From the sequence record PZ583739.1: a stretch of DNA of 64,000 bases. One strand, 5' to 3'. Below the pieces are notes generated by a model that searched no databases, was not told the DNA's origin, and saw only the letters and a program-made list of their open reading frames with translations. Below are positions 7,696-63,592 of this stretch, in pieces (position 1 is the first letter of the stretch; every line of letters starts with the position of its first letter). Origin of the DNA: a phage. Position numbers and translations under genes: made by a program.

Positions 7696-7702
7696 AAAGA
7701 AA

Positions 7703-7724
7703 GGGACCCGAAGGTCCCTTTTTT
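7703..7724. terminator. bidirectional rho-independent terminator
   Basis: gggacc-cgaa-ggtccc hairpin flanked by an A-run and a T-run, between convergent gene 54 (+) and the 7723..8013 ORF (-). Confidence 0.7.
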
Positions 7725-8013
7725 ATTTGCGGAATGAAATGAAACCTGCTGCAGTCATTACAACTTCTTTCTTAGCAAAGACTGTAATTGCAATTGGTGC
7801 TTCAGATTCAAGTTGCCCAGTTACTACACCATTAAAAATATTTTCTGTTTGTTCAGAATTTACAAAGTTTTCAACAGGGCGAAGGTCAAACTTCTTATCT
7901 TCGCCAAACACGCGCCGCAGTTCATTACCCACCGCGCTGTCAAACTCTTCTGAAGCCGGGATAACATTCTCAACTACCAGTTCCTGACCATTAAAGCGAA
8001 AAGATGATTTCAT
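7723..8013 (-). CDS. hypothetical protein (alt.-1-like by position)
   Basis: Track ORF start ATG 8044-8046 lies inside the promoter -10 box; ATG at 8011-8013 has leader catgaggaaaacaaaATG; 96 aa. Confidence 0.5.
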   Translation of the reverse strand: MKSSFRFNGQELVVENVIPASEEFDSAVGNELRRVFGEDKKFDLRPVENFVNSEQTENIFNGVVTGQLESEAPIAITVFAKKEVVMTAAGFISFRK

Positions 8014-8044
8014 TTTGTTTTCCTCATGTGCAATTGATATGAAC

Positions 8045-8074
8045 ATTGTATCGCACTTCCTTGTGCCTGTAAAC
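8045..8074 (-). promoter_or_regulatory. early promoter, T4-type -35 GTTTAC / -10 TACAAT
   Basis: Minus strand GTTTAC, 18 nt, TACAAT, immediately after the alt stop codon. Confidence 0.5.
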
Positions 8075-8076
8075 CC

Positions 8077-10143
8077 CTACGAAAGGAATTTAGGAGGAAT
8101 AGCTTCCAAATTAATACAACTAGCAAGAATACCAAGCCCTTGATTGACTTTCTTCGTTACCCCAGAGGATGCAAACGATGCAAAGTCAACAGATTCTACT
8201 GGCTCTTCTGTTTCCTCGCCCTGATAAACGACAAGCTCACCAGTTTCCATCAACACATCACCATCATAGATAACTGCATTTTCAGCCAGCATTTCGGTAG
8301 TCTGGATATCAGCTTCCAACAGTTTGACGTTTGCGTTTCCTTTATACGATGCATCGGTAATCTTGGTAATCTTAACTACAGTCCCACGAGGAAGAATAAC
8401 TTCCTGCTCGGATGTGTTGTTAGATAATTGACCAGGAAGAATGACGTTAATTAAATCAGCTCCAGAGATTTTCCAACCGACATGCATCATTGCATTATCA
8501 GGATTTGCCCCAGGAATATTAGGAAGCACAATTTCCTCGTCACCCTGGAAAGTGGTTCCATCGCGATAATCCTGATGAACTGCAGCCATAGCAACGTTTG
8601 CAACCCAACCGCCAAAGATAATCGGTTTAAGGGATGTTGATACATAGTTACGGAAATAAAATAACTTCGACTGCTTAATTTTATTAAACGTAGGAACGTT
8701 TAGATATTGACCACGCCATAGAGTAATATCTGGAGGTAGTTTTTGACCAACCTCAAATGCCGAGTCCATCACTTTTATTTTATGTGCAACATCTTTAGCG
8801 CTATTAAGGAATTCAGCTTCTTCCTCGTAATAATTACCCATCAAATAATTGTTGATGTCAATATAGTTAACGCCACAATAGCCCATGATTGTTCCTTTTT
8901 GACTTACGGTAAAACGGGCTGCTTCATTGTAGCTACTAACGAAATTCAAGATACTTTCGGTGGAGTCGTCTGCAAAATCATTAACTGCCGCACGAATTCC
9001 CGCAGTATATTCTTTTTCCCAAAGCTCTGCTGCATATTCGGCTGCATTTAGATTTGGTGGAGCAGAAGCCATTTGTTTTTCGATAAATGCGGCTTTACGT
9101 AGATTAAGAACCTCAGCACATGACTCAGCAAAAATCTGCATCTGCTTCATACTGCCAACCGGAGCACGTTTAAGTTCACGGTGCATGCGATTAAAAATAG
9201 GGTCAGTATCTTCAATACGAATTTCTTCTTTCCACACCCCGTTAGAACGCATAGCATAATCTGCTGCTTTCATACGGAACATCGCATTAGCATCCGATGG
9301 TTTAATAATAGTTTGTAATTCTTTATAATTCTTTATTGGTTCAGCAGTTACCGGTTTGCTAAATTTAGCAGCTTCTGCATCAATTTCATCCCAACCTTCG
9401 GGAACTTCATCTCGAGGTGCATACTGGGCCTGTGCGATAGCTCTGCGACTGATTTTTGTTTTCTGTGCAACAGAAGCATCAGTCTTTTTGTTTGCTGCAT
9501 CAATCAGAATCTCGGCCGCGATTTCTTGGTTGGAAACCTGTGTACCTGTATCTTTATCAGTGAATACATCGCCAACTTTAGTTTCGACTTTTTGATATTT
9601 CGCAGGGACTGGTGGCATACCATCAACCGAAAGCAGGTCAACACCTTTTTTGTACATAATTACGTATGCGTTCTTTTTACCAAGGCCAGAAGCATTCGGA
9701 AGAACACGATAACGGCCACCAGTTTTCATCTGAATCAGTCGAGTCATAATACGAATAACAGCTTGCTCTTGTCCTTTCATCTTTTTGGATGGGAAACGGA
9801 ACAATACTACATCTGGTTTGCCTAGTTTAATGCTTTCCCAGACAGTAGTAAAAATCAGGTTAATCGCATCAATAGGTTTTTCACCTAAACCGCCTTTCAG
9901 AGGAACAGCATGACCGTGTGAAGTACCGGAGAGCAGGAATACCTCAGCAATCGCATCGCCACGTTTATATTGTTTAACAGTTTCTTTGCCCGTGAATTGC
10001 ATCAAACGAGCCATAAGAGAATCTGTACCAGGAACAGCGAAGTGCCACACCTGTGGTACTTTATATTTCGGGTTCATATCAATGACAGGGTAGTTCAGAC
10101 CTTCTGTATCGGTGTCAAAGAGTTCATTTAATTGTTCAGACAT
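8077..10143 (-). CDS. alt: Alt ADP-ribosyltransferase (virion-packaged)
   Basis: 688 aa vs T4 Alt 682 aa; position between gene 54 and gene 30 as in T4; preceded by late promoter. Confidence 0.8.
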   Translation of the reverse strand: MSEQLNELFDTDTEGLNYPVIDMNPKYKVPQVWHFAVPGTDSLMARLMQFTGKETVKQYKRGDAIAEVFLLSGTSHGHAVPLKGGLGEKPIDAINLIFTTVWESIKLGKPDVVLFRFPSKKMKGQEQAVIRIMTRLIQMKTGGRYRVLPNASGLGKKNAYVIMYKKGVDLLSVDGMPPVPAKYQKVETKVGDVFTDKDTGTQVSNQEIAAEILIDAANKKTDASVAQKTKISRRAIAQAQYAPRDEVPEGWDEIDAEAAKFSKPVTAEPIKNYKELQTIIKPSDANAMFRMKAADYAMRSNGVWKEEIRIEDTDPIFNRMHRELKRAPVGSMKQMQIFAESCAEVLNLRKAAFIEKQMASAPPNLNAAEYAAELWEKEYTAGIRAAVNDFADDSTESILNFVSSYNEAARFTVSQKGTIMGYCGVNYIDINNYLMGNYYEEEAEFLNSAKDVAHKIKVMDSAFEVGQKLPPDITLWRGQYLNVPTFNKIKQSKLFYFRNYVSTSLKPIIFGGWVANVAMAAVHQDYRDGTTFQGDEEIVLPNIPGANPDNAMMHVGWKISGADLINVILPGQLSNNTSEQEVILPRGTVVKITKITDASYKGNANVKLLEADIQTTEMLAENAVIYDGDVLMETGELVVYQGEETEEPVESVDFASFASSGVTKKVNQGLGILASCINLEAIPPKFLS

Positions 10144-10168
10144 AATAGGTTCCTTATAAAATATGATG

Positions 10169-14030: not shown

Positions 14031-14396
14031 TTAGATATCAAATTCATTAAGAACTACATCAAAGATTGCTTCCAGGTGTTCAGGTTTTGCTTTGTTGCTC
14101 AGGATGTGACGAATCCAAGTTTTAACCAGAAGCTTGCGATTAACACCATTCCAGCAAGGATGAGTCCCTAAATCACGTTCACGGAAATCATCATCTAAAG
14201 CAATTTTAAAAGTTGAACCAGTCATAGTGATTGAAAGAGTGATACCATTTTCAAATCGCATATAAACGTAGTTAGGAGTCATATACTGTTCAATTTCGCA
14301 CACTGAACCATTTTTATGTTTCCATAAGCAAATAAATTCAGAAGAACCTGGGATGCAGTTAGAAACATATTTGCGTTCAAAGTTGATGTAGTTCAT
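14031..14396 (-). CDS. hypothetical protein
   Basis: 121 aa ORF preceded by a promoter/hairpin element at 14400-14460. Confidence 0.5.
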   Translation of the reverse strand: MNYINFERKYVSNCIPGSSEFICLWKHKNGSVCEIEQYMTPNYVYMRFENGITLSITMTGSTFKIALDDDFRERDLGTHPCWNGVNRKLLVKTWIRHILSNKAKPEHLEAIFDVVLNEFDI

Positions 14397-14467
14397 TTTA
14401 TTCTCCAGTTGTTTTCATTTGTTGGTACAGGTCTATAATATCATAACCTGTACCAAAGTAAACTGTT

Positions 14468-14836
14468 TTATGCGACTTTAATCCAATTATCTAAATTTAA
14501 TTCACCCTTAGCTTTCATTTTTTCAATCAAATCATCAGCAGTAGTGCGACCATTTTGATACCATGTAACATCTTCAGAATAACCAGTTTCTTCATCTTCA
14601 TAGGTCTTACAACGAATCTTACCAAGAATCAAAGTTTTCAGTTCGTAGGTATCACCAGTAAAAAAGTTTGTTACCATAATTTTCCAAGAGAAGTCATCAG
14701 AAGGACCTTCTGGAGTCATACAAGAAACGAATTCAAATTGTTCTTTATACAAGTGCCATTGCATTTCTTTAGTTTCAATGGCTTTGTAACCGTCGTGGTC
14801 TTTACCTTTGATGTATGAGTTAAGATTGATTTTCAT
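14468..14836 (-). CDS. hypothetical protein
   Basis: 122 aa; ATG preceded by the conserved leader ...actggagaataaaATG shared with three other loci. Confidence 0.5.
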   Translation of the reverse strand: MKINLNSYIKGKDHDGYKAIETKEMQWHLYKEQFEFVSCMTPEGPSDDFSWKIMVTNFFTGDTYELKTLILGKIRCKTYEDEETGYSEDVTWYQNGRTTADDLIEKMKAKGELNLDNWIKVA

Positions 14837-14877
14837 TTTATTCTCCAGTGTTTTATTGTGTAACTCAGTATGGAATC

Positions 14878-14907
14878 ATTATGCACTGGTCAAACCCTGT
14901 TGTAAAC
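14878..14907 (-). promoter_or_regulatory. early promoter (GTTTAC / CATAAT) with conserved leader
   Basis: Minus strand GTTTAC, 18 nt, CATAAT, followed by the leader gattccatactgagttacacaat...ggagaataaaATG. Confidence 0.5.
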
Positions 14908-14918
14908 CCCTTTATGGA

Positions 14919-14948
14919 AAATAAAAAAGGGACTCCGAAGAGTCCCTG
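14919..14948 (-). terminator. rho-independent terminator
   Basis: gggactc-ttcg-gagtccc hairpin plus T-run on the minus strand after the small ORF 14952..15113. Confidence 0.6.
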
Positions 14949-17942: not shown

Positions 17943-18484
17943 CAGATTGTCTCCTGTTTTACTTGTTTAACGATAGAAGCTTTTGTGATATCGCCTTTGA
18001 TAATATAGCAATCTTCAACAGTACCACGGTTTAACAGACGCTCTGCTTCGCCTTCCGCATATTCTTTTGACACATGACGAGAGTTAATCTCAATCTTGCC
18101 ATTTTTAACCACAAGCAATTTCCAAACTGATGCAAGTTTTACTGGCACAGGTTCAACTTCTGGCTTAACACCAACTTCTGCCTGGATGAAATAATCAAAT
18201 TCATCAGACAATGGACCAGCAGAAACAAACATTGCCCCATGATGCCTGTTCTGTGTGCCAGATATTTTTGGCAAATCCACAAAATCATTTTCATCAATCA
18301 AACGAATCTCACAAACTTTTTTACCGCCGCTGATGTCATCGGATAAAATCTTAACTTCAAACGGAGTCATACCGATGTATCCAGCAATTTGGTAATTGGC
18401 TGCCCAGCCTCCGGCAATAAACTGTTTTTTGGCATTTTCAGATACAAATTTGTAAAACTTACCTTCTTCAAAGAAATCGCTCAT
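17942..18484 (-). CDS. hypothetical protein
   Basis: 180 aa; ATG preceded by leader catgaggaaaacaaaATG and an early promoter. Confidence 0.5.
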   Translation of the reverse strand: MSDFFEEGKFYKFVSENAKKQFIAGGWAANYQIAGYIGMTPFEVKILSDDISGGKKVCEIRLIDENDFVDLPKISGTQNRHHGAMFVSAGPLSDEFDYFIQAEVGVKPEVEPVPVKLASVWKLLVVKNGKIEINSRHVSKEYAEGEAERLLNRGTVEDCYIIKGDITKASIVKQVKQETI

Positions 18485-18513
18485 TTTGTTTTCCTCATGT
18501 GTTGATGAAATTC

Positions 18514-18542
18514 ATTATACACCATCCATGGTGAAAGTAAAC
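18514..18542 (-). promoter_or_regulatory. early promoter (GTTTAC / TATAAT)
   Basis: Minus strand GTTTAC, 17 nt, TATAAT, then leader ...catgaggaaaacaaaATG. Confidence 0.6.
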
Positions 18543-18544
18543 AC

Positions 18545-18823
18545 TTAAATTGCTTCGACAACTACCGTTTGTTTCTGGAAGTCCATTTTGCATGAAATAG
18601 CCAAAATATGGTTATCAATTTTAAATGGAACAATTGCAAATGCTGCACCAGGCGTGAGTTGAACAGTGATTGCATCAACTGCATCCGGGAACATGATTTC
18701 CAGAATAGCAGACAAACGACCGTGCACTTTTAGTTCAGTCGACACGTCGACGCTTTCGTATAGATAATCAGATACAATCTGACTAAAAAGTACTTTAACA
18801 ATTTCAGAATATGTAGGAAACAT
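18545..18823 (-). CDS. hypothetical protein
   Basis: 92 aa ORF. Confidence 0.45.
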   Translation of the reverse strand: MFPTYSEIVKVLFSQIVSDYLYESVDVSTELKVHGRLSAILEIMFPDAVDAITVQLTPGAAFAIVPFKIDNHILAISCKMDFQKQTVVVEAI

Positions 18824-19493: not shown

Positions 19494-20715
<1,222 letters not shown>

Positions 20716-20743
20716 AATAATTTCCCCAATTTTATAATCCGTA

Positions 20744-20777
20744 GGAGCATTATACTCTGCTCCCATGAGTTTGTACA
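20744..20777 (-). promoter_or_regulatory. early promoter embedded in stem-loop (PeSL-like)
   Basis: Minus strand TGTACA, 17 nt, TATAAT; inverted repeat ggagca/tgctcc brackets the -10 box. Confidence 0.5.
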
Positions 20778-20881
20778 CTACTTTCCAAAAAGACCTTGAA
20801 CACATAAAGTGGCCGCAATTCCAAAACAAAAACAGAATGCACCAAATCTAACAATATCCCAACCAAGGCTACAGTTCTCTA

Positions 20882-22029: not shown

Positions 22030-22263
22030 TTAGTAGCGGTTATAACCCCGGGGACCAAAAGAGTTGGCACCCAGGCGCTCATCTTTCTTTTTGGCTCTTG
22101 CTCTAAACCCGGAATCACCTGTTTGAGCTTTCAGTTCTTTTAACAATTTGGCCTTTAGGTCAGTAATGAAACCAATCCGGCGGTCTCCCTTATAGACATA
22201 GATTCCATCATTTCTGTCACCATATGCCTTTGTAACTCTGTCATTTGTAATTAAGTTTAACAT
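22030..22263 (-). CDS. short paralog of the Alc-like N-terminus
   Basis: 77 aa; MLNLITNDRVTKAYGDRNDGIYVYKGDRRIGFITDLKAKL parallels MDMQLISNEMIVNEYGDRHDGIYVYKGTKKIGLMTDLRKKL of the downstream gene. Confidence 0.45.
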   Translation of the reverse strand: MLNLITNDRVTKAYGDRNDGIYVYKGDRRIGFITDLKAKLLKELKAQTGDSGFRARAKKKDERLGANSFGPRGYNRY

Positions 22264-22294
22264 GTTTTGGTCCTCATCAGTAGTTGATGGAACC

Positions 22295-22332
22295 ATTATG
22301 TATAGAAAGAAGGGGCTTGTACACCCCTTTTT
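22295..22332 (-). promoter_or_regulatory. terminator hairpin overlapping early promoter (PeSL-like)
   Basis: Minus strand gggg-tgtacaag-cccc hairpin with T-run after the rnlA stop; TGTACA, 17 nt, CATAAT, then leader caactactgatgaggaccaaaacATG. Confidence 0.5.
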
Positions 22333-22333
22333 A

Positions 22334-23470
22334 TTATTCAGGAAGGATTACTTCCGCCTGGTAGTCTAACGGAATGTAAAGTTTATGATTTTTAAGGAAA
22401 ACTTTATTGATTTGAGCAATCGTTTGTTCAGTTTCCTGTGGGCGTTGATAGGTGTTCATTAATACGGAGAACAATCCCGGATATGGTTTACATAACTCTT
22501 GACCTTTAATCGCAAACTCGCGACGGTCTTTTCCTGCTAACTGTTTTTGTGCATCAAGCAACAGTCCAAGAGTGTTGGACAGATAATCCAGATGTGTTGC
22601 AGTAAAGGCAGTAACTTTTTCACGAGCATAAGTATCGCCAGTAAACATGGCAATAACATCATCCGCGCCGCCAGCAACAACAACTTCAAACAGTCGCTCA
22701 TTATTATTAATGGAGTCTTTAGTATGATGCAGAGCACAATACCATTCTGTTTTCATCTTGAACTTCTGACCGTTAGCCATCTCATAGACGAAGCCTTCAA
22801 TCTCTTTCATACCGCGAACATTCTCAATGGTTGCCGGGTCATATGCTTCAACCAGGAAAGGACGAAGCGCTGCATCTTTGAACAGCTCCTGATAAGGAAT
22901 ATATTCACCAGTTTCATTATGACGAACGTTCAGTAAAATCAGGTCACGTTCCTGGTAAGGCAAAACAATGCGGTTGGTCGGTGCAACATATTCCATGTTG
23001 CATGTATAACCAGCTTCAGTGATTTCAGTCACACGAGCCCTGAATGCACTGCGATGTTCTTGTTTAAACACCTGCAAGGATTCAGCTGCTTGGGAGCTTT
23101 TGATTGACCCTTTGGATTTAAAGGCGATATTGGTCTGGTCCATATAAGTGGAAACCAAACTACCATCAGCTTTTGCAGTAACCAGGACAACTTCATCAAG
23201 GTTAAGGTCCATGGTCATTGGATTCTCACCCAGATTAAAGAATTTTTCCATAGGACGAGCAGCAATGCGAACTGGACCATTGTCATCCATTTCAAACATA
23301 ATGCCACGGCACTCCAGCGCATCATCAAGGAGCCAATCACTATAGGAAGCATAGTTATAGCTAAAGATGCGGAACTTAGTTTCAAATGGAGAAACAAAAT
23401 CCGTATAGAAAAACTTACCTTTATCAGATTCGGCGCAAAGCTTCATTAAGTTATCATATAATTCAATCAT
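22334..23470 (-). CDS. rnlA: RNA ligase 1
   Basis: 378 aa; FRIFSYNYASYSDWLLDDALECRGIMFEMD and KADGSL (adenylation lysine motif) match T4 Rnl1 (gp63). Confidence 0.9.
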   Translation of the reverse strand: MIELYDNLMKLCAESDKGKFFYTDFVSPFETKFRIFSYNYASYSDWLLDDALECRGIMFEMDDNGPVRIAARPMEKFFNLGENPMTMDLNLDEVVLVTAKADGSLVSTYMDQTNIAFKSKGSIKSSQAAESLQVFKQEHRSAFRARVTEITEAGYTCNMEYVAPTNRIVLPYQERDLILLNVRHNETGEYIPYQELFKDAALRPFLVEAYDPATIENVRGMKEIEGFVYEMANGQKFKMKTEWYCALHHTKDSINNNERLFEVVVAGGADDVIAMFTGDTYAREKVTAFTATHLDYLSNTLGLLLDAQKQLAGKDRREFAIKGQELCKPYPGLFSVLMNTYQRPQETEQTIAQINKVFLKNHKLYIPLDYQAEVILPE

Positions 23471-27376: not shown

Positions 27377-27409
27377 GTTTTCCTCTATAGTTCAAAAGGG
27401 TTGGGAACC

Positions 27410-27655
27410 TTAAATTGTCTCTGGTAGTTCCGAAGTCATTTCATCATTATATTCTTCTTCTGACTGGACAGTGATGTCAAAATATGACTGGACATCACCG
27501 GCTGAATCATGACAGTAGACACGTTCATGTCGTTTGGCCAGAAATTTGATTCCGTCAATAGTGATATAAGAATTTGGCGCAGGTAAATCCTGTTCGGTAA
27601 ATTGTGGCATTTCAAAAATGACTTCGCCTGACTGGCGTTTAAATCGTAAATTCAT
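27410..27655 (-). CDS. hypothetical protein
   Basis: 81 aa ORF between td and nrdA. Confidence 0.45.
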   Translation of the reverse strand: MNLRFKRQSGEVIFEMPQFTEQDLPAPNSYITIDGIKFLAKRHERVYCHDSAGDVQSYFDITVQSEEEYNDEMTSELPETI

Positions 27656-27714
27656 AATTTCCTCTCATTAAATTTTAAATAATTATATCACAGTGCCCTG
27701 AAGCGGAATCGTAT

Positions 27715-28014
27715 TTATGTACCCAAATCCTCGAGCGAAAAGGTGTCTTTGAAAAGTTTGTTAACGACCAGAGCGATAACGTCGCCATGACATGACTTCG
27801 GTTTGCATGTGCAGGCTAATCGCATTCCACGAAGGGTTTCAAGGTGTTCTCTTTTGATTTCACCCGATTTAATCTTTGCTATGAAATATTCTTTAAAGTT
27901 CTTTATGTTTTCTTCTCGGGTACCATCTTTATATGGGTTTCCCCACATGGTACCCCGTTGAATATTCACATCAAAGTCGGATTGATATTTGTTAACAACC
28001 CGACAGGCTTTCAT
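27715..28014 (-). CDS. hypothetical protein with Cys-rich motif
   Basis: 99 aa; conserved-looking WGNPY and CTCKPKSCHGD motifs; family not confirmed. Confidence 0.45.
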   Translation of the reverse strand: MKACRVVNKYQSDFDVNIQRGTMWGNPYKDGTREENIKNFKEYFIAKIKSGEIKREHLETLRGMRLACTCKPKSCHGDVIALVVNKLFKDTFSLEDLGT

Positions 28015-28075
28015 AATAGGAAGTTAAGCCCGACCATTACGGCCAGAAATAAAATACCGACAATTTGAATTTTCA

Positions 28076-28272
28076 TTAGACCTCGACAATAAACCAGATA
28101 GACCGATTGAAATCATCATATTCATACGATTTAATTACACGCATAACATAAAGTTCTTTACCCTGGACAAAAATCGTTGTTTTCTCTTTAGGCAGTTCAT
28201 CGAGACTTATGTTCATTTTTTCAAACAGCACCTCATTGGCGCCGTATCTATTGTTTACTATACGAATATTCA

Positions 28273-30059: not shown

Positions 30060-30299
30060 TCACGCTTTCTTAGCGACTTTCCAGTCAGCTTTAAATTGGT
30101 CAACATCAGAGTGGTGAATCCAGAAACCAGATGAGCTACCATCTTCATAAAGAGGACAACCATCACACTCATCTTTCCAACCCATCGCACATAAAGTTTC
30201 TTCAGCTTTTTCCAGGGCTTCTGGATTGTTACCCTGGATTGTAAAGTACCATTTGCCTTTAACTTCTGAATCTTTGATGCTCTCACGTTGTAATTTCAT
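30060..30299 (-). CDS. hypothetical protein
   Basis: 79 aa; ATG preceded by conserved leader ...actggagaataaaATG. Confidence 0.5.
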   Translation of the reverse strand: MKLQRESIKDSEVKGKWYFTIQGNNPEALEKAEETLCAMGWKDECDGCPLYEDGSSSGFWIHHSDVDQFKADWKVAKKA

Positions 30300-30340
30300 T
30301 TTATTCTCCAGTGTTTTAGTTGTTAACTCAGTATGGGACC

Positions 30341-30369
30341 ATTATGTCATAGCCCCATTTGGTTGTACA
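30341..30369 (-). promoter_or_regulatory. early promoter (TGTACA / CATAAT) with conserved leader
   Basis: Minus strand TGTACA, 17 nt, CATAAT, then leader ggtcccatactgagttaacaac...ggagaataaaATG. Confidence 0.5.
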
Positions 30370-30376
30370 CTACTTT

Positions 30377-30643
30377 TTAAATTTTATCAAGCCATTTGCC
30401 AAGTTTAATCATTTCCTTGGTGGCTTTTTCCATACTTCTGAACTTAACTAATAAAGGATGAGTATCAACCCCCATAACAAGATTGGTTGCAAGACTGTGT
30501 TCACCAACAAGCCATAATGAGTATGTTTGAACATCCAGACCATAATTTCTGTCTTTATGAACTCGTACACCCATTACTTCAAATTGATCGCTTGCTTTTT
30601 CTACTGCATCCAGGAAATCATCTTTAGTCATGTTAGACCCCAA
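30377..30643 (-). CDS. hypothetical protein
   Basis: 88 aa ORF. Confidence 0.45.
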   Translation of the reverse strand: MGSNMTKDDFLDAVEKASDQFEVMGVRVHKDRNYGLDVQTYSLWLVGEHSLATNLVMGVDTHPLLVKFRSMEKATKEMIKLGKWLDKI

Positions 30644-31007: not shown

Positions 31008-31065
31008 TTTAATTTCCTCATTTTTGTTGAGGGAACATGATAATATGTTCCCATTGGTTTGTATA

Positions 31066-31293
31066 CTACGCTTGAATTAAGCCCATATAAAATTCAGCGT
31101 CTTCAGCATGCATACCGTCACAATACTCATCAGCCATAAAGCGAGTAAGGTCTTCAAGAGGACCTTGAACTTCAATTTGAATACTAAAGAATTGCGTATC
31201 TTTAATGTAAGTCATACTCAAAGAAGGATAGCGATTACGGATAACTTCGTAAGTGTATTCAAAATCAACGATATCAATATTAACCTTAGCCAT
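31066..31293 (-). CDS. hypothetical protein
   Basis: 75 aa ORF preceded by the promoter-hairpin at 31322-31352. Confidence 0.45.
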
Positions 31294-31321
31294 TTTATTT
31301 TCCTCATGTAGTTGATAGGTC

Positions 31322-31352
31322 TATAATAACATAATCATAGACCCGTTGTAAA
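31322..31352 (-). promoter_or_regulatory. early promoter (GTTTAC) with stem-loop over the -10 region
   Basis: Minus strand GTTTAC, then hairpin ggtctat...atagacc containing a TATTAT-like -10, then leader ...catgaggaaaataaaATG. Confidence 0.45.
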
Positions 31353-31355
31353 CTG

Positions 31356-31718
31356 CTATTTGAAAGCTTTTTGTAGAAGTTCAATGATTTGGTCGACGTT
31401 ATTAGCATCTACAACACAATTAATAGAAACCGCCCCCGAAGGTGTTTTCGTATAATTGGAGTATTCACGGAAGCAATAAAACTCTTCTTCACTAAGTTCA
31501 AAATAATCATCACCCATGCCATCATCATTATAGATTGCACCATTAGCACAAATGATTTCGGTTACATAATCATAGCCGTCTGCACTTGATATTGATTTAA
31601 CTTCAAACCAACCGCCATTTTCTTGGATGATGTCGACCATACTAGCATTCGATGAACTAATATCAATGAAAGATTTAATACGATGTGGATTGAACTCATA
31701 TTTTTTGCCGATTTCCAT
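31356..31718 (-). CDS. hypothetical protein (paralog of 30633..31007)
   Basis: 120 aa; SD GAGGAAA; paralogous to 30633..31007. Confidence 0.5.
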   Translation of the reverse strand: MEIGKKYEFNPHRIKSFIDISSSNASMVDIIQENGGWFEVKSISSADGYDYVTEIICANGAIYNDDGMGDDYFELSEEEFYCFREYSNYTKTPSGAVSINCVVDANNVDQIIELLQKAFK

Positions 31719-31756
31719 TTTTATTTCCTCAGTTGTTATCAGTAGTTGATGGAATC

Positions 31757-31785
31757 ATTATGCCTTAGCTCAAAGGACTTGTACA
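31757..31785 (-). promoter_or_regulatory. early promoter (TGTACA / CATAAT)
   Basis: Minus strand aaaaagtagTGTACA, 17 nt, CATAATgattcc, then leader caactactgataacaactgaggaaataaaATG. Confidence 0.5.
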
Positions 31786-31800
31786 CTACTTTTTGAAAAT

Positions 31801-31824
31801 AAAAAAGGGACCCGAAGGTCCCCT
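31801..31824 (-). terminator. rho-independent terminator after gene 32
   Basis: gggacc-ttcg-ggtccc hairpin followed by a T-run on the minus strand. Confidence 0.65.
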
Positions 31825-31828
31825 TATA

Positions 31829-39022: not shown

Positions 39023-40153
39023 ATGGAAAAATTTATGGCAGAGTTTGGACAAGGATACGTCCAAACGCCAGTTATATCAGAAAATAATGCCGTTAAATTT
39101 AAAATGAGTATAGCAGGGAGCTGTACTCTTTCCACGGTGAAATCGTATATCAAATTTCAGGATGAACAAATCGGACCAACTACTTTTGGCAATGGTTTGA
39201 CTCTATTAGAAATTGATACAACTACGAATAAAATTGTTAACACGAAAAACTATTCATTGACCAGCACACATGATGTAATCAGTCAGGCATTAATCACCTT
39301 TGTGGAATCTGTTCCAGCTGGAAGATTGATTGCTTTTATTTCTTCTGGGAAACTAAATGCCTCGCAAACATTAATTGACTGGCTTCGTAAATGTGGCTCA
39401 AGAGCATTCCCCGAGAAATGGCTGATTGATAAAGTTGATACATCGTACTCGGCTTTTTACATAACCGGCCGGAACGTAATTGTTTCGGAGCATGTTAAGT
39501 ATAATGACGGGAAGTTAGTTGAGGATGTTTCGACTCCGCTTGAAGTCGTTTATGATACCTTTAGTGATATAGGAGCAACAGGCTATCCTGTGCGCATAAC
39601 GGAAGACGAGAGCACGTATTCATCAACAGGTGATGGAACATCAACCTCAATTAGAAGGTTCCCCACAGAGGACCTGGTGACTCCTATGAGCACATATAAC
39701 CTTTTACCTTTGGATGTGCTTTACCTGAAGTTTCAGATGTCATTTGACGCTGAACTGAAAGCCGCCGGGACTGTAAGGACTTCGGTTCGATTCTTTAAAA
39801 GTCCTAGCACTTCTCCGATATCAAATACAAACATCGATATTGCAGCAAACGTTCCAGCTGGTGCATGGGTAAGTTTCGAAAGATATGTTGAGATTCCAGC
39901 GGGAGCCGATGGCTTTACAGTAGTAACATCAAGGACTGTAGCTGTGGGAACTGGGTCAATACGTAATATTGTTATTGGTGAGATAACCAGAGGTGACTCG
40001 GCATTCAAACCAGCTGAATTTGGTGTCAACGGCATAAGGATGTCATATGCAAACGATGCAACAAATACAGGCAATACAATTGTAACATTACCAGATGCAC
40101 AAGCTCCGAGAGCCGGCAAGATATACGCAGCCGAACTACGAGAAAAACAATAG
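39023..40153 (+). CDS. 35: long tail fibre hinge connector gp35
   Basis: 376 aa (T4 gp35 is 372 aa); syntenic. Confidence 0.75.
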   Translation: MEKFMAEFGQGYVQTPVISENNAVKFKMSIAGSCTLSTVKSYIKFQDEQIGPTTFGNGLTLLEIDTTTNKIVNTKNYSLTSTHDVISQALITFVESVPAGRLIAFISSGKLNASQTLIDWLRKCGSRAFPEKWLIDKVDTSYSAFYITGRNVIVSEHVKYNDGKLVEDVSTPLEVVYDTFSDIGATGYPVRITEDESTYSSTGDGTSTSIRRFPTEDLVTPMSTYNLLPLDVLYLKFQMSFDAELKAAGTVRTSVRFFKSPSTSPISNTNIDIAANVPAGAWVSFERYVEIPAGADGFTVVTSRTVAVGTGSIRNIVIGEITRGDSAFKPAEFGVNGIRMSYANDATNTGNTIVTLPDAQAPRAGKIYAAELREKQ

Positions 40154-40174
40154 GACTCTTCGGAGTCCTTTTTT
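40153..40174 (+). terminator. rho-independent terminator (partial) after gene 35
   Basis: ggactc-ttcg-gagtcc hairpin followed by TTTTTT. Confidence 0.6.
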
Positions 40175-45726: not shown

Positions 45727-45998
45727 AATCCGGAGGTATACATCATAAGATAACGGTGTATATCTTCGAATCCTTCGTTAAATTGTTCAATGATTTGTTC
45801 AATTTCATCTTCAGATAAACTTTTAAACAACTTGTTAAACGATACATTGTTTAACTCATTCCCATTCTCATTTCTCAATCCCAACTCATTCAAAAACGCG
45901 ATAAACACATCACGCTTCATCGTAATATCTTCCCGGTCGGTTTTAATCAAAATTGAAGTTATAGTAACAATTTCAGAAACGATTTCAAATTTAGTCAT
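45723..45998 (-). CDS. asiA: anti-sigma70 factor AsiA
   Basis: 91 aa; EIVTITSILIK...FIAFLNELG...FNEGFEDIHRYLMMYT matches T4 AsiA (90 aa). Confidence 0.85.
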   Translation of the reverse strand: MTKFEIVSEIVTITSILIKTDREDITMKRDVFIAFLNELGLRNENGNELNNVSFNKLFKSLSEDEIEQIIEQFNEGFEDIHRYLMMYTSGF

Positions 45999-46047
45999 TT
46001 TAATTTACTCAAGTATTCAATAAGACATTCAATTATTCAGTAAGGGT

Positions 46048-46076
46048 ATTATACTATTATTCCTCTGGGTTGTACA
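46048..46076 (-). promoter_or_regulatory. early promoter (TGTACA / TATAAT) for asiA
   Basis: Minus strand TGTACA, 17 nt, TATAAT, about 45 nt upstream of the asiA ATG. Confidence 0.55.
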
Positions 46077-46221
46077 CATGATTTTCCATGTGTACAACAT
46101 ATTCCTGATACATCTGTTCAACTGGTTCCTGGAACTTAAAATCAGCTCCAAGGAATTCCTCAAAGCAAGCCAGCTCGCGTGTACGTTGACCGGTGATGGT
46201 GTTCTCTAAGTTATGACTCAT
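46057..46221 (-). CDS. small acidic ORF (54 aa), not in the ORF track
   Basis: ATG at 46219-46221; MSHNLENTITGQRTRELACFEEF...; overlaps the asiA promoter; speculative. Confidence 0.25.
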   Translation of the reverse strand: MSHNLENTITGQRTRELACFEEFLGADFKFQEPVEQMYQEYVVHMENHVYNPEE

Positions 46222-48027: not shown

Positions 48028-48243
48028 TTATCCCTTAATAGATTTCATATAATTTGATGCATATGATTGTACCACAGTACGTTTCATATGGGAAGTAGAA
48101 ACAATCACATCAATCGCTTGTTTACGTTCTTCTTTAGAGTTTGCCAGTTTGAACATGTCAAAGTAGTAATAACAAGCTTCTTTATTAGATTTGAATTTAG
48201 CGTTAATGTATTCTTGACCTTCATTCTGTTGTGCAGTAAACAT
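48028..48243 (-). CDS. hypothetical protein
   Basis: Track start is TTG; ATG at 48241-48243 preceded by conserved leader ...ctttggagaataaaATG; 71 aa. Confidence 0.45.
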   Translation of the reverse strand: MFTAQQNEGQEYINAKFKSNKEACYYYFDMFKLANSKEERKQAIDVIVSTSHMKRTVVQSYASNYMKSIKG

Positions 48244-48292
48244 TTTATTCTCCAAAGTTTTTGTGATTCATTGTGTAACTCAGTATGGAATC

Positions 48293-48321
48293 ATTATGCA
48301 GCGGGTCAAGGGGATTGTACA
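48293..48321 (-). promoter_or_regulatory. early promoter (TGTACA / CATAAT) with conserved leader
   Basis: Minus strand aaaaagtagTGTACA, 17 nt, CATAATgattccatactgagttacacaatgaatcac...ggagaataaaATG. Confidence 0.5.
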
Positions 48322-48334
48322 CTACTTTTTTTAA

Positions 48335-48360
48335 AATAAAAAAGGACCCCGAAGGGTCCT
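48335..48360 (-). terminator. rho-independent terminator
   Basis: ggaccc-ttcg-gggtcc hairpin followed by TTTTTTATTTT on the minus strand; forms a terminator-promoter cassette with the adjacent promoter. Confidence 0.6.
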
Positions 48361-50232: not shown

Positions 50233-50682
50233 TTAATAGCTCTGCAGAATGAATTTAAAGTTATCAGCAAGCATGCGATTCATTTCTGAAAGGGTCTGAC
50301 AATCAGAATTATGTGAGCGAGTGAACGCCATCGCAATTTGACCTTTACCGTAACCAGTTGTCAGAGGTTTCATTTTAGAAACTGGGACAAACAGGACTTC
50401 ATAGATAACCCCATTGTTCGCCATTGTGCGAGACAGTTGAGAACGCTGTTTGCGGATGTGACTTAATACAGTGTCAAACCCTTGTTGTGAACGTTGGTTA
50501 CCAACATAAAAACGTGCGGCAACAATACGTGATTCACCTTCACCTTTAACCACGAAATAAAAACCTGGTTGAGTGATAGCTTCTTTAGTTGGACGCCCTG
50601 CAACATAATTGCCATTATGGATGTAAGCAACAGTGGTAGCGCCAGCATTCAGTACGTCACGACGGGTCATGTAAGTAGTCAT
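50233..50682 (-). CDS. ndd: nucleoid disruption protein Ndd
   Basis: 149 aa; [37 protein letters not shown]...[20 protein letters not shown]...[15 protein letters not shown] matches T4 Ndd. Confidence 0.8.
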
Positions 50683-50720
50683 ATTAATTTCCTCAGTAAG
50701 TTAAAGTTTTGTGCTCCAGT

Positions 50721-50755
50721 GGGGTCATTATACTCTGACCCCATGAGTTTGTACA
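50721..50755 (-). promoter_or_regulatory. early promoter embedded in stem-loop (PeSL-like), near-identical copy of 62473..62507
   Basis: Minus strand TGTACA, 17 nt, TATAAT; ggggtca/tgacccc inverted repeat brackets the -10; about 45 bp nearly identical to 62465-62510. Confidence 0.55.
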
Positions 50756-51100
50756 CTATTTTTGAAGTTGTTCTAAAATAAATCCGCTGGTGTAAAGGCT
50801 TGCATTATACAGGCGGTCAAGAGATAACGAATCCAATCCATAAGCTTCACGAATTGCATTGATAACACTTTCATAACTTGTATAATAAACATCGCGATAA
50901 TCGCGGTCCATAGTCATGCGGAACTTAATAAATTTGTAGAAACCAGTTTCAGGGTCCTGATAGAATGCAAATTCTGCAGACATCAAATTTTTAAGGTTAA
51001 CAGCCTTTGTACCACCTGAATAACTTAAATCAAATGCTTCTGATACGCTAATCTGTTTAAAGAACATAATGTTGCGATTACCAAAAAATACTTTAGACAT
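50756..51100 (-). CDS. hypothetical protein
   Basis: Track ORF 50756..51124; ATG at 51098-51100 with SD GGAAAA gives 114 aa. Confidence 0.45.
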   Translation of the reverse strand: MSKVFFGNRNIMFFKQISVSEAFDLSYSGGTKAVNLKNLMSAEFAFYQDPETGFYKFIKFRMTMDRDYRDVYYTSYESVINAIREAYGLDSLSLDRLYNASLYTSGFILEQLQK

Positions 51101-51529: not shown

Positions 51530-51822
51530 TCATAAAAACGATTGGGAAAATGCTCAATACCATTAACAACACAAACATGTTCCAAATGACTTTAAGTAAC
51601 TTTTTCATAATCATCTCCAGCAGTTGATAGGTTCATTATACTACAACCACCGGAGATGTACAACTCTTTTATGCAAGTTTCATTAATAATAAACTAAAAC
51701 AAACGCAAATTACTGGGATACACAACATCCAGATAAGACACCAGGTTTTGCTGCTCAAAATATCACCTCTTTTATTTCAATCAGACCCCTGTGCAATGCG
51801 GTGCGAAGGTCATAAAGAATAT

Positions 51823-52020
51823 CTATGCCATCAACATTATCCAGTTTTCCATCAATAAGCTTTTTAAATCACGCTTTGATGCAACTAGCGGGCGAAGAAA
51901 TTTACATTCAGAAAGAGACAATTCTGTAGTAATATCATCACCATCACCTGACGCATCATACATGGCAGCAACAACCATACCTGTAACTTTGTGCTTGGCG
52001 TAATATAATTTGATATCCAT
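51823..52020 (-). CDS. hypothetical protein
   Basis: ATG at 52018-52020 preceded by leader catgaggaaaacaaaATG (also seen at 8013 and 18484); 65 aa. Confidence 0.4.
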   Translation of the reverse strand: MDIKLYYAKHKVTGMVVAAMYDASGDGDDITTELSLSECKFLRPLVASKRDLKSLLMENWIMLMA

Positions 52021-52030
52021 TTTGTTTTCC

Positions 52031-52186
52031 TCATGCATAACGATTGTATGTATTTTTGCGACACGCGTAAAATTGACGCTCAGTAACTGCAAAACTTTTT
52101 CCGCGCTGTTGCATTAATTTAAAAAATTCAGTAATATCGCCATTAACTTCAAGGTATAAAGTCATTGCATATTGAGCAGGTTTCAT
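52031..52186 (-). CDS. small ORF (51 aa), not in the ORF track
   Basis: ATG at 52184-52186 preceded by conserved leader ...actggagaataaaATG; MKPAQYAMTLYLEVNGD... Confidence 0.35.
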   Translation of the reverse strand: MKPAQYAMTLYLEVNGDITEFFKLMQQRGKSFAVTERQFYACRKNTYNRYA

Positions 52187-52211
52187 TTTATTCTCCAGTC
52201 TGTTTGGTAAC

Positions 52212-52254
52212 TCAGTATGGAATCATTATACAATAGACTCCATACTGATGTACA
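52212..52254 (-). promoter_or_regulatory. early promoter embedded in stem-loop (PeSL-like)
   Basis: Minus strand TGTACA, 18 nt, TATAAT; 10-bp inverted repeat tcagtatgga/tccatactga brackets the -10. Confidence 0.5.
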
Positions 52255-52265
52255 CTACTTTTTAA

Positions 52266-52541
52266 TTAATTGTGCATTTGTTCTTTAACTTCTTTATATG
52301 CGCCAACTGCATTCACGACCCCAGTAAAATCTGCAGTCCCACGATATAGATAGAAAGCAATTTCAGTCAGGTGGTATACTTCAAATTCTGAAAGATAAAT
52401 GATAACGTCATAATATGCAACTTGACCCTGGACTTCGTTGAATGCCACATCAAAAATTTCATGGGTTGGAAAATTGATGTTGTTGTTTTTGAGTGCTTGG
52501 ATAAGGATTTGTTTGATGTTGTGAGTAGTAACGTGTTCCAT
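52266..52541 (-). CDS. hypothetical protein
   Basis: Track ORF 52266..52646 overlaps its upstream neighbour; ATG with SD GAGGA gives 91 aa (MEHVTTHNIKQ...). Confidence 0.45.
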   Translation of the reverse strand: MEHVTTHNIKQILIQALKNNNINFPTHEIFDVAFNEVQGQVAYYDVIIYLSEFEVYHLTEIAFYLYRGTADFTGVVNAVGAYKEVKEQMHN

Positions 52542-57442: not shown

Positions 57443-57497
57443 ATATTAACACACTTTTTGTGGCTTGTACATAATAAAAAAGGACCCGAAGGTCCTT
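57443..57497 (-). promoter_or_regulatory. terminator hairpin followed by early promoter (PeSL-like cassette)
   Basis: Minus strand aggacc-ttcg-ggtcct hairpin plus TTTTTTATT, then TGTACA, 17 nt, TAATAT. Confidence 0.5.
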
Positions 57498-57501
57498 TTG
57501 G

Positions 57502-62436: not shown

Positions 62437-62472
62437 AATTTTCTCTCTTGGTTAATAAGTTTATTCTCCAGT

Positions 62473-62507
62473 GGGGTCATTATACTCTGACCCCAAGAGT
62501 TTGTACA
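62473..62507 (-). promoter_or_regulatory. early promoter embedded in stem-loop (PeSL-like), near-identical copy of 50721..50755
   Basis: Minus strand TGTACA, 17 nt, TATAAT; ggggtca/tgacccc stem around the -10. Confidence 0.55.
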
Positions 62508-62515
62508 CTTTAAAT

Positions 62516-63525: not shown

Positions 63526-63556
63526 TTTGTTATCCTCATCAGTAGTTGATGAGATG

Positions 63557-63585: not shown

Positions 63586-63592
63586 CTACTTT

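Follow-up and report, generated by a model that had tools for sequence, protein, structure and literature searches.

The window, by which we mean the whole stretch of 64,000 nucleotides analysed here, comes from a T-even phage of the genus Gaprivervirus whose close relatives are VR20, SP18 and RZ; its identity to Gaprivervirus genomes is 95-98%. Its genes follow the order alt, 30, 30.x, rIII, 31, cd, pseT, alc, rnlA, nrd, td, frd, 32 ... t, asiA, motA, 52, ndd, denB, rII; the 44-64 kb region is only 42-91% covered in relatives. Upstream of gene 30.8 lies a cassette of predicted terminator, promoter, leader and Shine-Dalgarno (SD) sequence with ATG, and about 17 early-promoter cassettes are found in the window. 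All of them are on the early strand, ahead of genes coding for 51-186 aa, and they precede orthologues of the T4 early genes 30.8, 30.7, frd.1-3, alt.-3, asiA, ndd, motB and alc. The T4 30.8 and frd promoters occupy corresponding places. The cassettes and their parts are as follows; paired boxes are written as -35, spacer length, -10.

14834-14947, minus strand: A1, upstream of gene 30.8 (Pfam Phage_30_8); predicted UUCG terminator 14928-14947, T/A tract, -35 TTTACA 14901-14906, -10 CATAAT 14878-14883, block 2 14860-14883, RegB-type SD GGAGAATAAAA 14836-14846, ATG 14834-14836.
30297-30381, minus strand: A2, upstream of frd.1 (DUF5417); -35 TGTACA 30364-30369, -10 CATAAT 30341-30346, RegB-type SD 30299-30309, ATG 30297-30299; hairpin arms 30348-30359 and 30333-30346, enclosing or overlapping the -10 (10-bp stem, z -2.4).
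48241-48360, minus strand: A3, upstream of a 71-aa ORF that precedes motA; predicted UUCG terminator 48343-48360, -35 TGTACA 48316-48321, -10 CATAAT 48293-48298, block 2 48275-48298, RegB-type SD 48243-48253, ATG 48241-48243.
52184-52266, minus strand: A4, upstream of a 51-aa ORF, a gene-replacement hot spot; -35 TGTACA 52249-52254, -10 TATAAT 52225-52230, RegB-type SD 52186-52196, ATG 52184-52186; 13-bp hairpin with arms 52236-52248 and 52212-52224 and the -10 in its loop (dG -22 kcal/mol, z -4.8).
22261-22335, minus strand: B1, upstream of a 77-aa N-terminal Alc fragment; hairpin AAGGGG/CCCCTT 22310-22329 around the -35 TGTACA 22318-22323, -10 CATAAT 22295-22300; leader containing ATCAACTACTGATGAGGA.
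31716-31825, minus strand: B2, upstream of frd.2, with a type B leader; predicted UUCG terminator 31804-31825, -35 31780-31785, -10 31757-31762, ATG 31716-31718.
63523-63597, minus strand: B3, upstream of an 85-aa ORF, with a type B leader; -35 63580-63585, -10 63557-63562, ATG 63523-63525.
8011-8085, minus strand: C1, upstream of alt.-3; TTTACA-17-TACAAT, SD block CATGAGGAAAACAAAATG (the T4 alt.-3 orthologue carries catgaggaacacaaaATG).
18482-18553, minus strand: C2, upstream of a 180-aa ORF; TTTACT-16-TATAAT, type C SD block.
52018-52083, minus strand: C3, upstream of a 65-aa ORF; promoter TTTACG-17-TACAAT at 52043-52071 with a weak profile score (nhmmer E=0.29), type C SD block.
20713-20789, minus strand: D1; TGTACA-17-TATAAT, arms 20759-20766 and 20741-20748 around the -10.
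50680-50767, minus strand: D2, upstream of ndd; TGGGGTC/GACCCCA (50737-50743 and 50720-50726) around the -10.
62434-62519, minus strand: D3, upstream of a motB-like gene; hairpin 62489-62495 and 62472-62478 around the -10, RegB-like GGAGAATAAAC at 62459-62469 near the leader 5' end.
14394-14474, minus strand: P30.7, the gene 30.7 cassette; TTTACT-16-TATTAT, RegB-type SD 14396-14406, 11-bp hairpin 14446-14456 and 14422-14432 around the -10 (z -4.6).
31291-31364, minus strand: cassette of the frd.3 homologue; TTTACA-18-TATTAT, leader agacctatcaactacatgaggaaaataaaATG.
45996-46088, minus strand: X1, upstream of asiA; TGTACA-17-TATAAT, with its own 49-nt leader.
51606-51674, minus strand: X2; TGTACA-16-TATAAT, short leader gaacctatcaactgctggag; the start codon is probably the second ATG, 51606-51608.

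The sequence-only reading had described three leader types at ten intervals. Its motifs are present in 10/10 of these intervals, far above chance, and are read there as the reverse complement because the genes lie on the minus strand. The sequence CCATACTGAGTTA has four exact copies in the window (ends 14873, 30336, 48288 and 52220), and 0/100 shuffles reached at least 7 matches at two or fewer mismatches. Three exact copies each were found of ATCAACTACTGAT (22288, 31750, 63550) and CATGAGGAAAACAAAATG (8028, 18499, 52035); all three sequences occur on the minus strand only. The ribosome-site sequence GGAGAATAAAA has five exact copies, again on the minus strand, each being the SD at the start codon behind a cassette promoter (0.3 expected). 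The downstream genes are indeed unrelated, as blastp and Pfam revealed no mutual similarity of the encoded proteins.

The division into types had to be redrawn in part. The conserved type A leader does contain two conserved blocks, but it is not uniform: block 2, (C/T)ATAATGaTtCCATACTGAGTTAc, is followed by a variable linker and then by block 3, ACTGGAGAATAAAATG, for a total of 38-49 nt. The -10 box assigned to this type, CATAAT, is found in A1-A3, while A4 has TATAAT. Because CATAATGATTCCAT is common to types A and B, as is the upstream AAAAAGTAGTGTACA, the two count as sub-types within a single family. Type C cassettes share an 18-nt SD block and nothing further, with three different promoters ahead of it. 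The list of leader types was also incomplete: a class D exists (20754, 50732, 62484), and four more cassettes lie at 14435, 31323, 46053 and 51640.

A profile built from the sites found 14 strong cassettes and one weak cassette across the window, all on the early-gene strand, and no cassette on the other strand. A generic sigma-70 consensus scan was uninformative (65 vs 61, 60 vs 51 and 52 vs 45 in shuffles); as it is not enriched, such a scan is useless alone in AT-rich DNA, and only the extended lineage-specific profile discriminates. The 15-mer TCCATACTGAGTTAC has 7-8 copies in each of three complete Gaprivervirus genomes, where approximately 0.0003 would be expected by chance. In an exact scan of IMG/VR with this 15-mer, multiple matches per genome were found only in the Gaprivervirus phages VR20, VR25 and VR26; about 50 other contigs had one match each, which we judged to be chance. 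The type A cassette was detected at one place in Dhakavirus IME341, the frd.1 locus orthologous to that of A2, vs 8-13 places in most Gaprivervirus genomes. The sequences AAAAAGTAGTGTACA, GATTCCATACTGAG and ATCAACTACTGAT were not found in the orthologous 32 kb of T4, so the family cannot be equated with the T4 early promoter.

Each cassette separates two small early genes, and its parts follow a constant order: stem-loop, A-rich tract, -35, spacer, -10, conserved block, leader, SD-ATG. In the 17 cassettes the promoter reads T(G/T)TAC(A/T/G), a spacer of 16-18 nt, and (C/T)A(T/C)(A/T)AT, and is predicted to be of the sigma-70 type. TGn precedes the -10 at a few sites only (e.g. 30369, 14462, 31352), and most promoters are without it. 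An A/T-rich tract, AAAAAGTAG or TTTTTTATTTT, lies ahead of the -35 box, and the SD and ATG of the downstream gene form the cassette 3' end; both are defining features of the PeSL elements discussed below. The block downstream of the -10 covers the discriminator and the first ~14 predicted transcribed bases and differs by type: GATTCC-ATACTGAGTTAC in A, GATTCC-ATCAACTACTGA in B and GACCCC-ACTGGAG in D. The leaders that follow are short and A/C-rich, and are predicted to be unstructured.

Conservation is concentrated in these blocks. Across orthologues, the share of variable columns is 2.7% for the discriminator/initial transcribed block, 1.2% for the -10 box and 2.2% for SD-ATG; the spacer, at 8.4%, and third codon positions, at 14.3%, vary more. 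From these alignments we conclude that the discriminator/initial block, the -10 box and SD-ATG are under purifying selection. In A1 and A3, which have no complementary arm, block 2 is just as conserved, so its conservation is not accounted for by the hairpin.

The stem-loops were not recognised in the sequence-only reading, nor was the early-promoter/terminator (PeSL) nature of the repeats. Predicted UUCG terminators, of the form C(UUCG)G with a T-run, lie upstream of the promoter in A1, A3 and B2; a hairpin covers the -35 in B1, and hairpins cover the -10 in A2, A4, D1-D3 and P30.7. C1, C2, B3 and X1 have no convincing stem. RNAfold gave stems of 8-13 bp with z -1.9 to -4.8 in A4, A2, D1-D3 and P30.7, and no -10-spanning stem in A1 and A3. 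As the hairpins over the -10 have no U-run, they are not canonical intrinsic terminators. Among 30 cassettes, the -10 hairpin was present in 0/7 of those with a UUCG terminator (or a -35 hairpin) vs 14/23 of the others; an upstream UUCG terminator and a -10 hairpin never occurred together in one cassette. In the same 30 cassettes, the spacer pairs better with its own downstream block than with those of others (mean duplex energy -8.8 vs -6.0 kcal/mol), and the observed value was reached by 0/10,000 permutations. The orthologous D3 locus has two fully compensatory pair changes, GGGGTC/GACCCC here vs GGGACC/GGTCCC in CJ20. An operator for a protein, formed by an inverted repeat at the -10, was considered and rejected, because the arms differ between cassettes yet remain complementary. 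The only common internal arm mismatch is G-T (8 G-T, 0 A-C); this would fit an RNA stem on the sense strand, though the numbers are small (~4 independent events) and the point is not firm.

We compared the cassettes with six relatives of the window phage. By hand count, 5 of ~16 indel loci have a junction inside a cassette (14923-14925, 31291, 51111, 52019-52023 and 52181-52184). Four of these deletion, insertion or replacement junctions are in the SD-ATG block, and one is in the A/T tract between terminator and -35. In SP18, gene 30.6A is inserted in A1 between the terminator and the -35, and frd.3 is missing with the junction at the ATG. VR7, SP18 and CJ20 are without both C3 and the 51-aa ORF, and CJ20 has a chimeric A/C-type SD. 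In VR26, the B2 promoter with the same spacer carries a type A leader and another gene, and at 60.7 kb in VR7 the promoter and spacer of A2 recur ahead of a different leader. The proposal that the shared leaders provide dispersed homology for recombination is well supported by these indel and replacement junctions, the chimeric SD and the leader swap, and the alignments support the view that cassettes serve as crossover points for gain, loss and swap of small genes.

Many indels between these genomes are unrelated to cassettes, such as homing endonuclease insertions and ORFs between overlapping genes.

The closest known elements are the PeSLs, which were defined in RB49/phi1, where they act as promoters and terminators and where crossovers fall between the -10 and the ATG (Arbiol et al. 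2010, PMC2839356); PeSLs are also found in T4/PST and nt-1/KVP40 (Comeau et al. 2014, PMC4122927). The cassettes resemble them in the order of their parts (an upstream stop codon within the A/T tract, sigma-70-type boxes, a stem-loop that precedes or overlaps the -35 or -10, and SD-ATG), in their many copies among small variable genes, and in the way close relatives differ by indels and replacements whose crossovers fall between -10 and ATG or in the A/T tract. They differ in the -35 box, which is mostly the palindrome TGTACA here vs TTGACA in RB49 and TTTACW in T4/PST, and in their stems, which are short and mixed as opposed to the polyG/polyC of known PeSLs. They also split into A, B, C and D by their transcribed part, with a perfect RegB box in type A only. 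For RB49/phi1, mini-circles and promoter and terminator activity are known by experiment; promoter and terminator activity of the Gaprivervirus cassettes is predicted from sequence. Neither PMC2839356 nor PMC4122927 describes PeSLs from Gaprivervirus, the one mention being of "PeSL-like sequences" close to gene 43 of JS98, and our literature search found no description of Gaprivervirus promoters.

T4 early promoters, with UP, -35, TGn and -10 and extra consensus beyond the hexamers (Hinton 2010, PMC2988021), are a second comparison. The cassettes share with them a GTTTAC-like -35, a TATAAT-like -10, an A-rich upstream tract, extra conserved positions, and a place ahead of the orthologous early genes 30.8, frd.1, alt.-3, asiA, ndd and motB. 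In T4, the 30.8 orthologue is preceded by terminator, promoter and TTACACAA...GGAGAATAAAATG in the same arrangement. The mostly missing TGn and the blocks missing from T4's 32 kb set the cassettes apart. A third comparison is with the T-even IP-locus repeats, which in the summary of Repoila et al. 1994 given in PMC2839356 are described only for internal-protein loci. As far as that summary goes, these repeats are alike in being built on early promoters and in having AT-rich stem-loops that flank interchangeable small genes, whereas in the window this design recurs in several of the early-gene regions that were examined. The VR7 ip genes have the same cassette type, with a hairpin GATGGGATA/TATCCCATC around the -10.

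Taken together, we consider it probable (about 0.8), on sequence features, comparison with relatives and work on other phages, that the repeats are early-gene regulatory cassettes of a Gaprivervirus T-even phage, equivalent to PeSL elements. Host RNA polymerase would fire the cassette promoters immediately after infection. The stem-loop would insulate each unit from upstream transcription, and the open leader would give efficient initiation. In type A, RegB with ribosomal protein S1 may cut inside the SD GGAGAAUAAAA minutes later, turning the gene off. As the same 15-25-nt blocks recur at many loci, they could act as portable homology. A crossover inside a cassette would then insert, delete or replace the downstream gene with its expression signals intact, and such crossovers would leave one promoter and leader ahead of unrelated genes.

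An alternative is that the leader is a dedicated cis-regulatory RNA that either folds into a structured element or serves a translational repressor such as RegA as its operator, and would thus be a translational switch shared by the type A genes. RegA operators are degenerate, A+U-rich and overlap the AUG (PMC3014915). The SD-ATG block AAUAAAAUGAAA is A+U-rich with 5' poly(A), overlaps the AUG and is unstructured like RegA sites, and blocks 2 and 3 are under purifying selection; the composition of SD-ATG in type A fits RegA operators, although the published operators are too degenerate for a sequence test. The RegA SELEX sequence AAAAUUGUUAUGUAA has no match in the type A SD-ATG block. When seven type A and B leaders were folded from the inferred start site, no structure above shuffles was predicted (z -0.2 to +2.0), and no Rfam family matched anywhere in the window at gathering thresholds. 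On this folding result, a leader of the riboswitch or attenuator kind was rejected. The division of the leader into two blocks, with a linker variable in length and sequence, also argues against a dedicated element. RegA control typically falls on replication genes, whereas the type A genes are immediate-early ORFs.

Block 3 matches another regulator. An 11-nt sequence equal to GGAGAATAAAA is reported to be the optimal target of T4 RegB/S1 and to be required for its efficient cleavage (Durand et al. 2006, PMC1702504), and it fits the RegB/S1 consensus GGAGRAYARAA (GGAG and an A-rich heptamer). As with known RegB/S1 sites, the 11-nt site is predicted to be single-stranded and doubles as the SD in front of early genes. 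In types B and C the corresponding sequence is GAGGAA, GAGGAU or GAGGAC, which by T4 data is predicted to be a poor RegB substrate. The regB gene is annotated in the relative VR7; in the phage studied here it would lie outside the window. Because the ribosome site of type A is an exact RegB/S1 consensus, it points to mRNA inactivation by RegB and not to a RegA-like repressor, and we consider a dedicated cis-regulatory RNA unlikely. The sequence-only reading had deduced common translational control from the shared leaders; we infer this for type A, whose copies have the RegB/S1 consensus at the ribosome site, and shared control of type A genes via RegB is plausible.

Block 2 (GATTCC-ATACTGAGTTAC) might instead be a DNA or nascent-RNA signal for RNA polymerase or a phage factor, for example a promoter-proximal pause via the -10-like CATACT, a site for a shut-off factor, or an Alt/Mod-dependent element. 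It is invariant in 7-8 copies per genome and across orthologues while the adjacent spacer drifts, it is conserved in A1 and A3 without a complementary arm, and an extra consensus beyond the hexamers is known from T4 early promoters (PMC2988021). However, types B, D and X have other sequences at that position, and the uniformity could stem from the recent spread of one source cassette, so that we regard such a signal as doubtful. We give equally little weight to a lineage-specific role of the invariant 20-nt block, which spans the discriminator and the first predicted transcribed bases and was detected at one place in the sister genus, as a sigma-dependent pause at CATACT, a site for a phage early factor, or an attachment point for integron-like cassette exchange. 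If an integron-like exchange system were at work, the -10 hairpins would act at the RNA level on read-through transcripts.

Somewhat less probable again is that recent duplication or gene conversion produced the repeats as functionless leftovers. The likeness of A1 and A3 extends to the terminator and to part of the spacer, and promoter and leader modules have visibly been reshuffled. However, the spacers of paralogues are unrelated while both flanking blocks are near-identical, which a contiguous copy or conversion tract would not give; compared across orthologues, changes are approximately 5-fold fewer than at synonymous sites; and the stems have compensatory changes. Similarity limited to generic Shine-Dalgarno and AT-rich DNA, the outcome that would have undone the sequence-only reading, is highly improbable and is refuted for types A, B and D by alignment, shuffles and exact counts: although type C has little beyond its 18-nt SD block and GGAGAATAAAATG also precedes the T4 genes 30.8 and frd.1, there are 24-nt near-identical blocks upstream of the SD, the observed counts were reached by no shuffle, and exact 15-mers number 7-8 per genome.

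PeSL-equivalent cassettes in Gaprivervirus leave the existing understanding of PeSLs unchanged; the element type has already been described. They provide a clean, well-resolved case of small accessory gene swapping in T4-like phages, in which expression signals double as recombination sites, so that an incoming gene would be ready for expression. Because the Gaprivervirus sub-types are recognisable, a chimeric SD or a leader swap directly marks a crossover point. A further consequence of the sub-types is the prediction that RegB would switch off type A genes only. For annotation, the cassettes may serve to mark true start codons and operon boundaries among unannotated small ORFs.

The conserved sequences quoted in the sequence-only reading were present, after reverse-complementing, at 10/10 of the intervals it had listed. 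The window holds four exact copies of CCATACTGAGTTA, three of ATCAACTACTGAT and three of CATGAGGAAAACAAAATG, on the minus strand throughout, and the observed count of the type A core was reached in 0/100 shuffles. The 15-mer TCCATACTGAGTTAC recurs in 7–8 copies per genome in three complete Gaprivervirus genomes (IMG/VR). As had been claimed, the downstream proteins are unrelated: gp30.8, DUF5417/Frd.1, two ORFans, an Alc N-terminal fragment, Frd.2 and others. The leader of the type A cassettes (A1–A4), 38–49 nt long, is conserved as two blocks, (C/T)ATAATGaTtCCATACTGAGTTAc and ACTGGAGAATAAAATG, while the linker between them varies in length; the -10 is CATAAT as described, except in A4, where it is TATAAT. 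Types A and B had been taken for separate leader types; since upstream AAAAAGTAGTGTACA and CATAATGATTCCAT are common to both, they are sub-types of one family. Type C leaders share an 18-nt SD block and nothing beyond it, behind three different promoters. That reading had missed three copies of a fourth class, D (TGTACAaactcatggggtcagagTATAATgaccccactggag), as well as four further cassettes. The family and its component parts are directly visible; the repeat feature is real and was rightly spotted, yet it is an instance of an already known kind of element.

A profile derived from the sites gave 14 strong matches and 1 weak match, on the early strand only, and two extra promoters (30.7 and the frd.3 homologue) came from a consensus scan and a RegB-box search. 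Each unit runs from an A-rich tract through a -35 T(G/T)TACA, a 16–18 nt spacer and a -10 (C/T)ATAAT to a discriminator starting with G and ending with CC, a probable start at A, the leader and the SD-ATG. In AT-rich DNA such as this, a generic sigma-70 scan was not enriched relative to shuffled sequence. The evidence is thus the position of the sites and the extended pattern specific to the lineage, hexamers being insufficient by themselves; from that evidence we infer promoter activity and start sites. The favoured -35 hexamer is the palindrome TGTACA (e.g. 52249-52254, 48316-48321, 30364-30369), nearly always preceded by AAAGTAG. It matches TTGACA at only 4/6 positions, and its T4 counterpart is GTTTAC; this weaker match is fixed in most of the cassette family.

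The cassettes resemble the promoter-early stem-loops (PeSLs) of RB49/phi1 in architecture, variable stem-loop placement, genomic setting and crossover positions (PMC2839356). Experiments on the RB49/phi1 elements demonstrated promoter strength, terminator activity and excised mini-circles (PMC2839356); the window cassettes are known from sequence. Subsequent reports added PeSLs of T4/PST and nt-1/KVP40 (PMC4122927), PeSL-like sequences were noted in JS98 (PMC2839356), and early-promoter repeats had been seen at T-even IP loci in 1994 (as summarised in PMC2839356). The ip genes of VR7 carry the same cassette type as the window. A consensus beyond the hexamers is known for T4 early promoters (PMC2988021), in contrast to which TGn is mostly absent from the window cassettes. 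This difference from the known systems is lineage-specific, as are the -35 palindrome and the division of the family into sub-types that can be recognised by their transcribed part. A literature search of incomplete coverage found no descriptions of these elements in Gaprivervirus.

The stem-loops take several positions. C(UUCG)G terminators with T-runs lie upstream of A1, A3 and B2, and in B1 the -35 box is inside a hairpin. The spacers of A2, A4, D1–D3 and the 30.7 promoter can pair with the discriminator plus the earliest transcribed bases, leaving the -10 box in a hairpin loop. These stems, of 8–13 bp with energies to -22 kcal/mol and z-scores to -4.8, have no U-run. Among 30 non-orthologous cassettes (window plus VR7 40–80 kb), spacers paired better with their own downstream blocks than with those of other cassettes, the observed mean being reached in 0/10,000 permutations. 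The -10 stems also covary: at the orthologous D3 locus, GGGGTC/GACCCC in the window versus GGGACC/GGTCCC in CJ20 represents two fully compensatory pair changes. The -10 hairpin was found in 0/7 cassettes with an upstream terminator versus 14/23 others (hypergeometric p ~0.006–0.03, our own calculation on a post hoc classification). Mismatches within stems comprised 8 G-T and 0 A-C (about four independent events), a hint that the stem forms as RNA when transcripts read through. The stems may have an insulating role.

Between the frd.3 and frd.2b homologues, at 31031-31052, a perfect hairpin GGGAACAT-attatc-ATGTTCCC surrounds a -10-like sequence, and no -35 box could be recognised; the arrangement resembles the degraded "half" cassettes described for PeSLs. 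A second dispersed repeat family in the window consists of C(UUCG)G tetraloop terminators that are nearly identical to one another (GGGACCTTCGGGTCCC and variants), some of them bidirectional.

C(UUCG)G terminators in the window
7700-7721
14928-14947
31804-31825
40152-40169
48343-48360
57478-57499

In paralogues, unrelated spacers separate nearly identical blocks, which is not the pattern expected of contiguous duplication or a conversion tract. Variation was scored in cassette orthologues from six genomes.

Variable columns by cassette part
-10 box: 1.2%
SD-ATG: 2.2%
Discriminator and initial transcribed block: 2.7%
-35 block: 4.5%
Leader middle: 7.7%
Spacer: 8.4%
Third codon positions: 14.3%

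Purifying selection acts on the block 3' of the -10, because 2.7% of its columns vary as against 8.4% in the spacer and 14.3% at third codon positions. This block is equally conserved in A1 and A3, both without a complementary arm; the hairpin is therefore at most part of the reason for conservation. The least explained feature of the cassette is that GATTCC-ATACTGAGTTAC is strictly conserved even in copies without a stem.

Folded from the proposed start, type A and B leaders did no better than shuffles (z -0.2 to +2.0) and had no Rfam match; by these models they are open and A/C-rich. In T4, efficient RegB/S1 cleavage needs an 11-nt sequence, consensus GGAGRAYARAA (Durand et al., PMC1702504), and the type A SD block GGAGAAUAAAA is this sequence. 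Its five exact window copies (~0.3 expected), all on the minus strand, each abut a start codon behind a cassette promoter, in the four type A units and gene 30.7, so that RegB-consensus SDs can be read directly from the cassettes. The relative VR7 has an annotated regB. Since GGAA motifs are very poorly cut by RegB in T4 (PMC1702504), poor cleavage is predicted for types B and C (GAGGAA/U/C). A RegA site may also lie at the type A SD-ATG, because RegA operators are degenerate, A+U-rich and AUG-overlapping (PMC3014915). Most simply, what the type A genes have in common would be a RegB-sensitive ribosome site, i.e. early shut-off by mRNA cleavage, with RegB predicted to cut at these sites. At 62459-62469 on the minus strand, about +5 of the D3 (motB-like gene) leader, GGAGAATAAAC is nearly a perfect RegB box; being ~25 nt upstream of the SD in use, it may serve for cleavage in the 5'-UTR instead of at an SD.

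Pieces of 4 kb and 20 kb from the window have 92–98% identity to Gaprivervirus VR20, SP18, RZ, MN01, CJ20 and VR7, and no identical record was found among the phage genomes compared with them. The best records per region reach 91–98% coverage and 95–98% identity, but the best record changes with the region and none matches throughout; judging from these comparisons, the source is a mosaic Gaprivervirus different from every phage genome compared. Gene order is T4-like: baseplate genes, alt, 30, 30.1-30.9, rIII, 31, cd, pseT, alc; then rnlA, denA, nrdB/A, td, frd, 32, 59, 33, rnh; then tail fibre 34-38, t, asiA, motA, 52, ndd, denB, rIIB/A, 39. All early genes and all cassette elements are on the minus strand. 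Several loci differ from relatives or are unusual in structure.

8077-10143, minus strand: alt, single here; a tandem pair (alta, altb) in SP18
10143-10150: site to which a 1.9-kb SP18 insertion maps
22030-22263, minus strand: 77-aa ORF, only the N-terminal third of Pfam ALC; with the downstream ORF, an apparently split alc, also shown in two (alcb and alca) by the SP18 annotation
27386-28264: ~880 bp with three small ORFs between nrdA and td, where SP18 has only 112 bp; cassette at neither junction
59522-60322, minus strand: 266-aa Seg-like homing endonuclease (GIY-YIG, NUMOD3, I-TevI-type DNA-binding) adjoining the large topoisomerase subunit gene; missing in MN01 and CJ20, replaced in RZ by another gene, annotated endonuclease VII

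Dispersed homology for recombination had been proposed, and pairwise comparison with six relatives, followed by alignments, indeed placed junctions inside cassettes. In SP18, an inserted gene 30.6A separates the A1 terminator from the -35, at 14923-14925. Neither the 51-aa ORF nor the C3 promoter is present in VR7, SP18 or CJ20; VR7 has the next gene fused to the A4 leader within AAAATG, and CJ20 has a chimeric SD whose first half, CTGGAG, is of type A and whose second half, AAACAAAATG, is of type C. Across genomes, four different genes stand behind the A4 cassette. The frd.3 homologue is missing from SP18, where the junction reads ...aaaataaaATGATGgaaact and would fit a crossover between the near-identical blocks GAGGAAAATAAAATG and GAGGAAATTAAAATG. 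MN01 and SP18 carry a D-type cassette at a site where the window has none, homology ending at the SD-ATG. The terminator, promoter and spacer that precede the type B leader and frd.2 in the window are followed in VR26 by a leader of type A and a different gene, with the shared GATTCCAT as the switch point. At VR7 60.7 kb, the A2 promoter together with its spacer stands before another leader. By hand count, cassettes are involved in roughly five of ~16 indel loci, yet make up <3% of the window; many other indels, e.g. homing endonuclease insertions, are unrelated to cassettes.

Dhakavirus IME341 gave a single type A detection, at the frd.1 locus; this copy is complete and has the hairpin and RegB box found in the window. 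Since it was detected only there, the type A module may have spread within the Gaprivervirus lineage, and homologous crossover would be the mechanism by which genes are exchanged at the cassettes.
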